Shown here piece by piece: positions 1,704 to 34,688 of a stretch of DNA of 64,000 nucleotides. Every line of letters begins with the position of its first letter. Position 1 is the stretch's first letter. Made by a program: the position numbers and the translations under genes. The stretch is taken from NCBI GenBank assembly GCA_050124975.1, contig JASFEF010000001.1, positions 26,122-90,121 of the forward strand, written 5' to 3'. This stretch comes from Candidatus Thorarchaeota archaeon. Its GTDB lineage: Archaea > Asgardarchaeota > Thorarchaeia > Thorarchaeales > Thorarchaeaceae. A model generated the notes under the pieces. The model saw only the letters and a program-made list of their open reading frames with translations. It had not been told where the DNA came from and ran no database searches.

Positions 1704-1789
1704 TCCGACACCTTGTAATGGACTACCTACTTGTCTGTAATAAGCTAAATGGAGCTAGGACGACAGACTTCTGACCCATTTCTTTGTTT

Positions 1790-2200
1790 AATGTGGATCC
1801 GTCACAAAAACAAGAAACCTCTGTGTTCCACCCATTTCTTGCCAGTGTCACCACCTCTCGAAGGCCAAAAGACTTCAAGATTAGCAAGAGCATTGTCAAT
1901 AATCATCGAGATGGGATCCCTCCTAAAGACCTGACTTCTTTCTCCTGTATTGATATCGGGTCATCACTCCCAATGACAGAGAGATTTTCCACAGTTCTTA
2001 CCACGGCAGGGTCATCATCACTCCTACCAGCGCCATCACTGAAACTAGCAAGGTCCGATTGGACATAGTGAACAGCCGCGGACTCTCTGAAACTTGATAA
2101 GAGTTCTTTCTTGGAGAGTAGGAACTTCCCTCTGAAAAATCTCCATCGGGCTTTCAGTCGTGTACATCGAGTCTTATCCAAGACATCAGTCCACATACTT
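1790..2200 (-). ncRNA. Unclassified conserved structured-RNA candidate, copy 1 (overlaps called ORF 1903..2211)
   Basis: Paralog of 33998..34413, about 74% identical with no indels over ~300 nt. Differences are spread evenly over codon positions. Conservation continues ~110 nt beyond the ORF stop. A terminal helix (AUGUGGA/UCCACAU) and hairpins are kept by compensatory changes. An AT-rich TATA-like box lies ~25 nt upstream. See findings. Confidence 0.5.
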
Positions 2201-2367
2201 AGTTCCTTCATATCATTCTATATTGATACATGCATATTAGCACATACAATTCTTCCTTTGACTGAGAGAGAAGGTTGGTTTGTCAAGACTTGGTGCTTTG
2301 TCGTAAAATAAACAGACTTATCCGGAGTTCAGCAGTTTCAGCACTCAGATTTTCATAGGAAGGGTTC

Positions 2368-7767: not shown

Positions 7768-7905
7768 TGGTGGGGCAGATGGGATTCGAACCCACGATCG
7801 ACGAGTGTCTTCGTTGACGACGGTCTTTGTTGACCCCGTCCATTTCAGGCGCGAATTGCACCTAGATCTGGAGCCCGTCGCCATACCGGACTAGGCCACT
7901 GCCCC
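7768..7905 (-). tRNA. tRNA-Trp(CCA) with a ~60-nt canonical (37/38) intron and encoded CCA
   Basis: Acceptor GGGGCAG/CTGCCCC. Anticodon stem ACGGG/CTCGT with loop CUCCAGA. T-arm GTGGG-TTCGAAT-CCCAT. The intron contains a GACGG/CCGTC hairpin. Confidence 0.85.
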
Positions 7906-33244: not shown

Positions 33245-33646
33245 CTAATGGTCATTATTGAACTCTGACACCAGACAGGAGAGATCATCACACTTACTTC
33301 GGAGAACAGCATCTCCACGTAATCTTTTGAGGGATGAAAACACAAAATGACTACCAATTAAGAGAAGGAACACTATACCTACACCCAAAGCTACTATGTA
33401 CCCCAGAACTTGGCTGACCGTGTAGCTGTTCGACGTAGCAATCAGGATTGTCATCAGAGACAATGCTATTGTCAGTATACCTATTCCAGTACGAAGTTCA
33501 GCAAGATGAGTCCTCTTTTCAGCATCAATTGTGCGGATGAATGCCAGCGAAGTTCTAATGTTGCTCTGTTCCATTCTATCATCAAACTCTTGTGATTCTG
33601 TTGTCAATGTGGTCCCCTCATCAATCTTCGAGTAGAGGGTCTCCAA
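33245..33646 (-). CDS. DUF202 (YidH)-like small membrane protein
   Basis: 133 aa. RTHLAELRTGIG resembles the ERT.LAW.RT motif. Two to three TM helices. Confidence 0.5.
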   Translation of the reverse strand: METLYSKIDEGTTLTTESQEFDDRMEQSNIRTSLAFIRTIDAEKRTHLAELRTGIGILTIALSLMTILIATSNSYTVSQVLGYIVALGVGIVFLLLIGSHFVFSSLKRLRGDAVLRSKCDDLSCLVSEFNNDH

Positions 33647-33872
33647 GTTTCAGTTTTCTGCCATGTCTACGACGTCTAGCAAACAAGCGAGCTGCTTCTT
33701 CGGGACCTACCAATTCTGATACTCTCTTGAAGGCTTCAGGATCATCTTCCCTATCCAGCCATTTCTCAATCTCCCTCGCCACTGAAGGAGAGAGGTCCTT
33801 TGCCAGCTTCTTCTTTCGACCTTTACTATCCAAGTCGAAATCATCTGGACCAAGTAGACTCATCGTACTCAC
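33621..33872 (-). CDS. Small charged hypothetical protein
   Basis: 83 aa, GTG start. Overlaps the downstream gene by 26 nt. Preceded by a 24-codon uORF that shares its N-terminal decapeptide. Confidence 0.4.
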   Translation of the reverse strand: MSTMSLLGPDDFDLDSKGRKKKLAKDLSPSVAREIEKWLDREDDPEAFKRVSELVGPEEAARLFARRRRHGRKLKLGDPLLED

Positions 33873-33997
33873 AATCGATTGTGAGAAGTCGGTTTAAGAT
33901 GTTTGTCGTATAGGTCAAAGTCATCTGGGTCAAGTAGACTCATTTCACTTACTCACTAATGATTGCCGACCAATAGTTAAGACCTTCTGACCAATTT

Positions 33998-34413
33998 CAT
34001 GTGGTTGAATGAGCATCAACTGCTAGAAATTTCTGTGTTCCACCCTTTTCCTGTCCAGTTTCGCCACTTTCTAAACTCAATATGAAATTAGAATTAACAG
34101 AAACTTTGTCCATTATCATCAGAATAGAATTCCTCCTATAGACCTGGTTTCCTTCTCCTGCATTGATGCTGGAACATCACGTCCAGCCACAGAGAGCGTT
34201 CCCACAGTTCTTACCACGGCGGGGTCATCATCACTCATCTTGGAGTCGTCACCGAAACCAATAAGGCCCGTTTGGACAAAGTGAACAGCCGCGGACTCTC
34301 CCGGACCTGATGTCTGATCCTTCCTGGAGAGTAAGGACTTCCCTTGAGAAGATTTCTTTCGGATTTTCAGTCGTGCACGTCGGACTTTGTCCAAGGTCCT
34401 AGTCCACATACCT
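33998..34413 (-). ncRNA. Unclassified conserved structured-RNA candidate, copy 2 (overlaps called ORF 34119..34424)
   Basis: Paralog of 1790..2200 with the same blocks, the same spacing and compensatory stem changes. An AT-rich box (aaataatt) lies ~25 nt upstream. See findings. Confidence 0.5.
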
Positions 34414-34581
34414 AGTCCTGTCATACAATTATTTGTTCTTGGAATCTTTTGAACTCGTACTTTAGTAGGAGAAATAAGGGCGGTCTTGGATTTATCAAGT
34501 GATTACAGCTTTATTCATGATGACATTGAGTGATACTCCGTTATTCTTATAACCAAAACCCGAGGACTGCCCGTCTAGCAT

Positions 34582-34688
34582 GGGTCGGTGGTCTAGCTTG
34601 GCTATGATTCCTGGTTTGGGTCTTGCGAACTCTTGTTCGCTAGCAAGACTCCAGGGGATCCCCGGTTCAAATCCGGGCCGGCCCACCA
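34582..34688 (+). tRNA. tRNA-Pro(UGG) with a ~29-nt canonical intron and encoded CCA
   Basis: Acceptor GGGTCGG/CCGGCCC. Anticodon stem CCTGG/CCAGG with loop UUUGGG. T-arm CCCGG-TTCAAAT-CCGGG. A TATA-like box (ttcttataacc) lies ~30 nt upstream. Confidence 0.85.

Follow-up and report, generated by a model that had tools for sequence, protein, structure and literature searches.

Two repeats in a Thorarchaeota contig are probably solo copies of the omega-RNA region of a TnpB element

A 64-kb stretch of a Candidatus Thorarchaeota archaeon contig (JASFEF010000001.1, positions 26,122 to 90,121 of the forward strand, assembly GCA_050124975.1), referred to below as the window, contains two copies of a repeat of about 475 nt, both read from the minus strand. 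In that reading, the upstream neighbour of copy 1 is nop5 (from 2368, plus strand), and that of copy 2 is a tRNA gene (34582-34685, plus strand). An earlier note on this DNA had taken the repeat for a structured ribonucleoprotein RNA, either RNase P-like or of a new L7Ae-binding type. The repeat itself is real, although its units are longer than reported there (33987-34460 and 1771-2247), and covariation bears out the structured RNA; the RNase P and L7Ae identities are not supported. The copies are instead probably nuclease-less, solo copies of the omega-RNA part of a Thorarchaeota TnpB element, non-autonomous and similar to palindrome-associated transposable elements (PATE). The features concerned, in window coordinates, are:

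33987..34460, minus strand: copy 2, solo omega-RNA-like scaffold, from its 5' GTACGAG start to 3' ...UUGGUCAG, with a sharp 3' border and a co-varying fold
34119..34424, minus strand: copy 2, open reading frame (ORF) of 101 aa, homologous to the TnpB C-terminal tail and wholly inside the scaffold
33967..33986, minus strand: copy 2, putative guide position (AAGGUCUUAACUAUUGGUCG), unique DNA directly 3' of the scaffold, the guide role being assigned from the TnpB paradigm
34461-34502, minus strand: copy 2, poorly conserved left part (tentative)
34503-34512, minus strand: copy 2, upstream direct-repeat copy AAAGCTGTAA, degraded, 7/10 identical to the 3' copy AAGGTCTTAA at 33977-33986 (tentative)
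34168..34187, minus strand: copy 2, hairpin D or helix 15 (alignment columns 259-263 with 274-278), with a conserved loop containing GUGAUG
34236..34265, minus strand: copy 2, second helix or helix 12 (columns 183-193 with 198-208)
1771..2247, minus strand: copy 1, solo omega-RNA-like scaffold, from alignment, co-varying fold and profile match
1903..2211, minus strand: copy 1, tail ORF of 102 aa inside the scaffold, 59% identical in amino acids to its copy 2 counterpart
1751..1770, minus strand: copy 1, putative guide position (AAGUCUGUCGUCCUAGCUCC), its first 10 nt being the 3' direct-repeat copy
2310-2319 and 1761-1770: copy 1, degraded direct repeat, 8/10 identical

Read from the ATG on the minus strand (34424 in copy 2, 2211 in copy 1), the two copies align without gaps over 369 nt, with 104 mismatches. 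They are linked by two identical 19-20-mers found nowhere else in the 64 kb (chance expectation 0), and a DNA profile search (nhmmer) of the window recovered just copy 1 (E = 4.7e-122) and copy 2 (E = 2.8e-123). Copy 2 aligns end to end with 73 relatives. Both ORFs are intact, with their ATG at the equivalent position. Mismatches between the copies are spread evenly over codon positions (26/30/24), a pattern not expected of a protein evolving under ordinary selection. Each scaffold also contains, wholly within its 3' part, a second short ORF (34-40 aa; MIMDK.../MIIDN...), at 33997-34119 (-) and about 1801-1905 (-); its ATG and the stop of the tail ORF overlap (UGAUG), and the GAUGA start context is kept across the family. 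This ORF is probably incidental to the RNA sequence.

The origin of the tail ORF is apparent from its relatives. A protein search retrieved more than 150 clusters of "hypothetical proteins" of ~100 aa, every named one from Thorarchaeota. In two longer proteins cut by contig ends (P0028 and P0029), the tail ORF is in frame with a TnpB zinc ribbon (PF07282, the Cas12f1-like/TnpB TNB domain) and the RuvC-III motif NADRNGAINIA. A scan of one genome per species confirmed the family at a minimum of 183 places, 80 of which were fetched, in some 20 Thorarchaeota/Promethearchaeota genome bins, with up to at least 18 per bin and many at contig ends. In about 23 of 83 loci, the tail is the C-terminus of an ORF of 556-590 aa that matches Pfam PF07282 (46.2 bits, cut-off 26.3), NCBIfam NF040570 (guided_TnpB, RNA-guided endonuclease TnpB family; 104.8 bits, cut-off 100) and solved TnpB and Cas12f chains. 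The NF040570 match covers residues 23-445, so that the last ~110 residues, which correspond to the window ORF, fall outside the TnpB fold; a Pfam search with the two 101-102-aa window ORFs themselves gave no match.

In these last codons the constraint is at the RNA level. Across the TnpB core of 23 full-length genes, third-codon-position conservation is 0.54-0.78; in the tail, six of seven 15-codon blocks reach 0.81-0.89, the level of positions 1 and 2 (the exception, containing GLGLW, is at 0.68). The rise starts 13 codons ahead of the position of the solo ATG. The segment homologous to the window copies in the ~23 loci consists of the last ~100-115 tnpB codons plus ~130 nt past the stop, in the sense orientation, and begins ~39 nt ahead of the codons ...V-R-G-L-G. 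Conservation past the stop ends abruptly at ...GAAAUAGGU[CU]A[GU] (the right border, DNA ...GGT[CT]A[GT]), beyond which the flanks are unrelated; in copy 2, family conservation stops at 33987. From this homology and anatomy, the segment is identified as the omega-RNA region of a TnpB element. The kind of element is already known; this omega-RNA family is new and uncurated, and a search within one literature library found no paper mentioning both Thorarchaeota and TnpB.

The structural evidence comes from an alignment of 74 distinct copies, including copy 1 and copy 2; 31 of the 74 are solos, defined by a stop codon 2-35 codons ahead of the segment. RNAalifold predicts 89 pairs on this alignment, 47 with compensatory changes. 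Local runs on short blocks gave empty structures at default settings and were redone with RIBOSUM scoring, and the addition of four local hairpins brings the fold to 114 pairs in 24 helices. In this fold, 94.7% of cells pair, vs. 43-47% in controls with the 3' partners slid by 1-3 columns; 64 of the 114 pairs (616 cells) show double changes, vs. 22-36 pairs (66-140 cells) in the same controls; and none of 500 shuffles matches the observed pairing or double-change values. Between copy 1 and copy 2 alone, 15 pairs are altered on both sides with pairing kept. G-U cells greatly outnumber A-C cells (904 vs. 147), which identifies the RNA as the tnpB-sense strand, that is, the window's minus strand. 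The fold spans both the ORF and the region past its stop and co-varies, and three long-range helices (13, 16, and 18) connect the two parts. The solos as a class are equally well paired (94.6% of cells, against 95.0% for full-length copies), with double changes at 48 pairs. Folded alone, on either strand, copy 2 shows no stability beyond that of its shuffles (z = +0.31 and +0.37), and the evidence for structure is thus comparative only.

The individual stems proposed in the earlier note recur in this fold. Hairpin D (GCUGGA/UCCAGC in copy 2, AUUGGG/CCCGAU at 1955-1974 in copy 1, loop xGUGAUGx) is helix 15, where four of five pairs are doubly changed and pairing is seen in 96.5% of cells; helix 12 is the note's second helix (34236-34265; 2023-2052 in copy 1), with all nine pairs doubly changed; and the 5' hairpin (~2160-2186) corresponds to helices 3 and 4, with co-variation at five of five pairs.

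The solos are a recurrent class: multicopy, with a shared architecture (31 in the alignment), and without transposase and nuclease genes. They have in common a 36-nt leader, which starts GUA[CU]GAG, often includes a TATA-like UUCAUAUAC, and has its start a few nucleotides at most from the onset of RNA-level constraint in full-length genes. The first bases of the leader match a GTACGAG... module ~110 nt upstream of tnpB in full-length units; as a whole it is 50-63% identical to the tnpB segment that it replaces, in a base-by-base reading by eye. By sequence distance, the solos are interspersed among full-length copies, solo L052 being only 7% from full-length L060 in the same bin (L numbers designate loci), which fits RNA modules staying matched to the resident TnpB.

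The upstream module itself, ~85 nt long and ~110 nt upstream of the tnpB ATG, has the form GTACGAGT..(variable hairpin)..GGGAGTGAACTCGACTGACCGAAACGGGTCAGAA, for example in L019, L022, and L058. It resembles the omega-RNA region over that region's first 7 nt and last ~45 nt, and is preceded by a TTAATAAnTTTATATA box and followed, before tnpB, by a second TTTATATA box. This module might serve as the left end, yield a mini guide-RNA-like transcript, or do both. Past complete elements at L017 and L027 (30-130 nt beyond the border) and L008 (+300 nt), the final 35-60 nt of the scaffold recur as truncated copies (GTTCACTCAC...AGGTTAT). They follow short unique spacers, giving a repeat-spacer-like look near tRNA genes, and may have arisen by nested insertion into a hot spot or form some kind of array.

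Traces of mobility are found at the borders. The first 10 nt past the right border recur exactly upstream in five of 34 solos (control 0) and in several tnpB-bearing copies; exact 10-bp direct repeats are found at L056, L061, L065, L069, L020, L076 (two copies), and L079. The upstream repeat is always preceded by ..AT, and its distance from the GTACGAG start ranges from 26 nt to over 2000 nt; the left boundary is therefore variable and without a conserved terminal sequence. Toward the other end, GTTCACTC is found 28-34 nt ahead of the right border in 37 of 74 copies. It was also considered whether the solos might derive from an IS200/IS605 element by a simple deletion that leaves the left and right ends; the shared GTACGAG start fits this, and the leader's similarity to the replaced tnpB segment and the 10-bp repeats do not.

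No TnpA was seen next to full-length copies in a search limited to element neighbourhoods; a different ORF is found there. It is on the opposite strand, ~125-170 nt upstream of the GTACGAG module, at 15 full-length loci (among them L003, L006, L008, L016, L018, L019, L022, L025-L027, L029, L039, L058, L060; proteins P0121-P0159). Its relatives in the databases are 585-785 aa long, restricted to Thorarchaeota, and fast-evolving (27-72% identity). Searches of Pfam, NCBIfam, PADLOC, and PDB (by sequence and by profile) gave no match, to Cas1 or otherwise. With a confident AlphaFold model (pLDDT 83), Foldseek gave no significant match; the weak matches of best probability were Cas1 integrases (3god_C, probability 0.77, E ~1, target-normalised TM-score 0.42; also 9p1d, 9p11, and 7kft). 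A C-terminal D...E.K-like motif was noted by eye only.

Both window insertions are shared with other species. The earlier note had pointed out that copy 1 adjoins nop5 and fibrillarin, and this is correct; the same insertion is present beside the same genes in L030, from another species, where these proteins are 82-84% identical. The copy 2 insertion recurs in L076, ahead of the same two small genes (proteins 63-85% identical). Comparison of copy 2 with this ortholog (L076_1981) shows that the helices are kept, with 12 pairs changed on both sides and still pairing, and L076_1981 has a perfect 10/10 direct repeat at the same site. In L058, the genes neighbouring copy 2 are present and the element is absent; the junction there, ...GGAAT|AAGGTCTTAACT..., corresponds to the DNA just 3' of copy 2, which marks it as an empty site. 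Most of the other copies examined have neighbours other than nop5 and fibrillarin, and no functional tie was found between the RNA and either gene.

Rfam models were run twice, on the whole window at gathering score and on both copies at E<=10. The genuine matches in the window are two intron-containing tRNA genes, at 34582-34685 (+) and 7771-7905 (-), with 42.9 and 50 bits; the rest are at chance level. The former has a 32-nt insertion after the anticodon stem, and copy 2 is ~70 nt from it, measured from the upstream repeat copy. ARAGORN, unlike Rfam, reports zero tRNA genes in the whole window. Between copy 2 and the ORF at 33621..33872 is a diverged duplicate (33905-33960, -) of the leader and first codons (MSLLDPDDFDL...) of that ORF; compared with the orthologous locus L076, it is an insertion of 84 nt.

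If the window copies are solo omega-RNA regions, their working can be proposed as follows. A solo would keep just the omega-RNA part of the element, beginning at the onset of RNA constraint and ending at the shared right border, with the tail ORF inherited as a by-product. It would be transcribed from the minus strand, perhaps from the TATA-like box in the 36-nt leader, and the transcript would fold into the conserved multi-helix scaffold. In full-length elements, the first ~16-20 nt of flank past the right border would be transcribed as the guide, the length being an estimate. TnpB produced by full-length copies at other places in the genome would then bind the solo scaffold in trans, and the RNA would guide this TnpB to the empty counterpart of the site where the solo is inserted, favouring retention or spread of the element, as has been proposed for PATE-like elements. 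For TnpB with copy 2 RNA, the predicted target is AAGGTCTTAACTATTGGTCG, with ..RAT as the preferred putative target-adjacent motif (TAM). That the window copies are indeed active in trans, that is, transcribed and loaded onto TnpB, seems to us neither more nor less probable than that they are not.

Several observations weigh against the solo omega-RNA interpretation. Typical omega RNAs are far shorter than the ~475-nt scaffold here, although the mature RNA may be part of it only. Neither tnpB nor its divergent upstream ORF was found in the 64-kb window, to which all statements here on the absence of tnpB refer. A 10-bp duplication does not fit classical IS200/IS605 peel-and-paste transposition, and the candidate TAM ..RAT is drawn from about a dozen junctions. 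The same substitutions placed at random would disrupt the tail ORF somewhat more often than is observed (P = 0.03-0.15), and the ORF may yield a peptide. In the TnpB relatives, finally, the canonical RuvC-II glutamate aligns to a glycine (L019 ORF ~338-348, VAIGRLKNIR, and the family consensus; the 8j3r reference has IQMEDLTNIR), with RuvC-I GIDLG and RuvC-III NAD kept and their aspartates present. This makes nuclease activity uncertain: the protein may be an inactive enzyme, or may belong to a TnpB branch with a "rearranged catalytic site" of the sort that PMC10691335 describes.

Some of the same observations could be read as simple decay, with the window copies as relics whose structure was inherited from active elements and has not yet eroded. 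There is no tnpB nearby in the window, the direct repeats on either side have decayed to 7/10 and 8/10, and the left parts are poorly conserved. Both insertions are nonetheless present in other species (neighbour proteins 63-87% identical), with helices kept by compensated changes at the orthologous sites, and the solos pair as well as full-length copies. The compensated changes in particular make pure decay less likely, and this explanation is considered unlikely.

At the protein level, the copies could conceivably be paralogous genes for a ~100-aa protein, possibly in addition to an RNA role. Their ORFs are intact from an equivalent ATG, the databases hold the more than 150 ORF clusters of similar length, the full ORF is kept in 28 of 31 solos, and random placement of substitutions leaves it open in just 3-15% of trials. 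The relatives were, however, collected by protein search, which enriches for ORFs that are intact. There is no third-position excess, substitutions being even over codon positions; conservation and co-varying helices run ~130 nt past the stop and bridge it (helices 13, 16, and 18); and the ORF belongs to no Pfam family and is the tail of TnpB. A protein-coding function of this kind is improbable.

A more elaborate possibility, to which only a small chance is given, is that the solos are host-retained guide RNAs working with a catalytically rearranged TnpB. The missing RuvC-II glutamate would allow for a TnpB that does not cut, and solos fixed across species directly upstream of same-strand host genes make TldR-like RNA-guided regulation conceivable. 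If this were true, the parent element might have been moved by a Cas1-like integrase making 10-bp duplications, and the tandem right-end fragments might, in Asgard archaea, be intermediates on the way from the guide RNA of a transposon to an array of the CRISPR type.

The identities proposed in the earlier note fare worse. Neither copy is overlapped by an RNase P, C/D-box, H/ACA, SRP, sotRNA, or other Rfam family at E<=10, and sub-threshold C/D matches (E = 1.4-9.5, far below gathering) are confined to the flanks, outside both copies. A new L7Ae-bound kink-turn (K-turn) RNA tied to the Nop5-fibrillarin machinery was suggested by a box-C-like GUGAUGAUGA and a CUGA, which are in fact present in both window copies, and by the position of copy 1, which is beside nop5 in two species. 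Family-wide the motif does not hold, most relatives having GUGAUAAUGA rather than GUGAUGA; the "box C" GUGAU is Watson-Crick paired with UCACU in helix 10, where pair 166-211 changes from U-A to C-G in 17 sequences; no C/D-box family match overlaps either copy; and most other examined copies have different neighbours. This identity is very improbable. A divergent, duplicated RNase P-like RNA is extremely improbable as far as sequence and structure models reach: its case consisted of short sequence resemblances (GAGAGUCCGCGGCU, GGUAAGAAC, and ACAGA), of which the CR-I-like GAGAGUCCGCGGCU is the junction of helices 7 and 9 and the others fall in a conserved single-stranded stretch of an unrelated fold in which no P4 helix could be built, RNase P covariance models match neither copy at gathering score or even at E<=10, and the family overlaps tnpB and has at least 183 copies in ~20 bins.

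With the copies read as solo omega-RNA regions, a false lead is removed: neither a second RNase P RNA nor a new L7Ae RNA is present here. What would take their place is an unusually large, Thorarchaeota-specific omega-RNA family with a covariation-supported fold, which could seed an Rfam model, and more than 150 clusters of ~100-aa Thorarchaeota "hypothetical proteins" would be read-outs of an RNA module. Asgard TnpB systems are also relevant to the question of how eukaryotic Fanzor and CRISPR effectors originated. The size of the scaffold, the 10-bp repeats, a partner that may be Cas1-like, and the absence of the canonical RuvC-II glutamate are features that this identity does not account for; the same-site solos in several species, together with the repeats and the possible partner, make the family a reasonable experimental target.

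The closest known systems can be compared point by point. Archaeal RNase P and C/D-box/K-turn RNAs are likewise structured ribonucleoprotein RNAs, and short look-alikes to them are found here, but there is no model match, the fold is different, and the present family is found in at least 183 copies and overlaps a transposon gene. IS200/IS605 elements with peel-and-paste transposition are characterized by a Y1 TnpA, insertion 3' of a TAM, and no target-site duplication, a description that the element does not fit in the neighbourhoods of its full-length copies.

PATE-like elements "often encode omega RNAs" and need TnpB in trans (Meers 2023, 10.1101/2023.03.14.532601). The solos resemble these and other derivatives of IS200/IS605 of the miniature inverted-repeat transposable element (MITE) type in lacking a mobility protein, keeping a guide-RNA module, reaching many copies per genome, and presumably depending on TnpB in trans. 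They differ in the exact 10-bp direct repeats of some copies, in left ends of varying length, and in that several are fixed at sites occupied in other species too.

In TnpB elements, the omega RNA covers the tnpB 3' end and stops at the right border, and the guide follows (10.1101/2023.03.14.532601; PMC12558985). It is also designated reRNA of TnpB/OMEGA systems, for which PMC12558985 cites Karvelis 2021 and Altae-Tran 2021. The present family has the same sense orientation, the same overlap with the tnpB 3' end up to the right border, a co-varying scaffold, and a variable flank at the guide position. Unlike these RNAs, it has a scaffold of ~475 nt that overlaps ~100 tnpB codons; the window copies are without tnpB, and the partner TnpB is without the canonical RuvC-II glutamate. 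Among archaeal examples, the haloarchaeal sotRNAs (RF02656 and RF02657) are sense-overlapping transcripts at the 3' ends of IS1341-type tnpB genes, and are omega RNAs (PMC12558985). These too are archaeal, sense-overlapping, and located at the tnpB 3' end, but RF02656 and RF02657 match neither copy at E<=10, and the family described here is a separate, uncurated one.

Within the Asgard archaea, Altae-Tran 2023 (PMC10691335) describes two Asgard-specific TnpB groups, Cas1H-Asgard-1 and -2, that are linked to Cas1 homologues; a hypervariable stretch adjoins the conserved GTTCACTCA motif that they carry downstream of tnpB. These aCas1-TnpB groups share with the present family a restriction to Asgard archaea, the GTTCACTCA motif downstream of tnpB (here 28-34 nt ahead of the right border, as GTTCACTC), repeats flanking the locus, and a variable stretch after a conserved T, the border here ending in T or G. 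They differ in their Cas1 linkage, the divergent ORF here having no Cas1 sequence match and weak Cas1 fold matches only. This family may be the same as the Asgard aCas1-associated TnpB family of PMC10691335.

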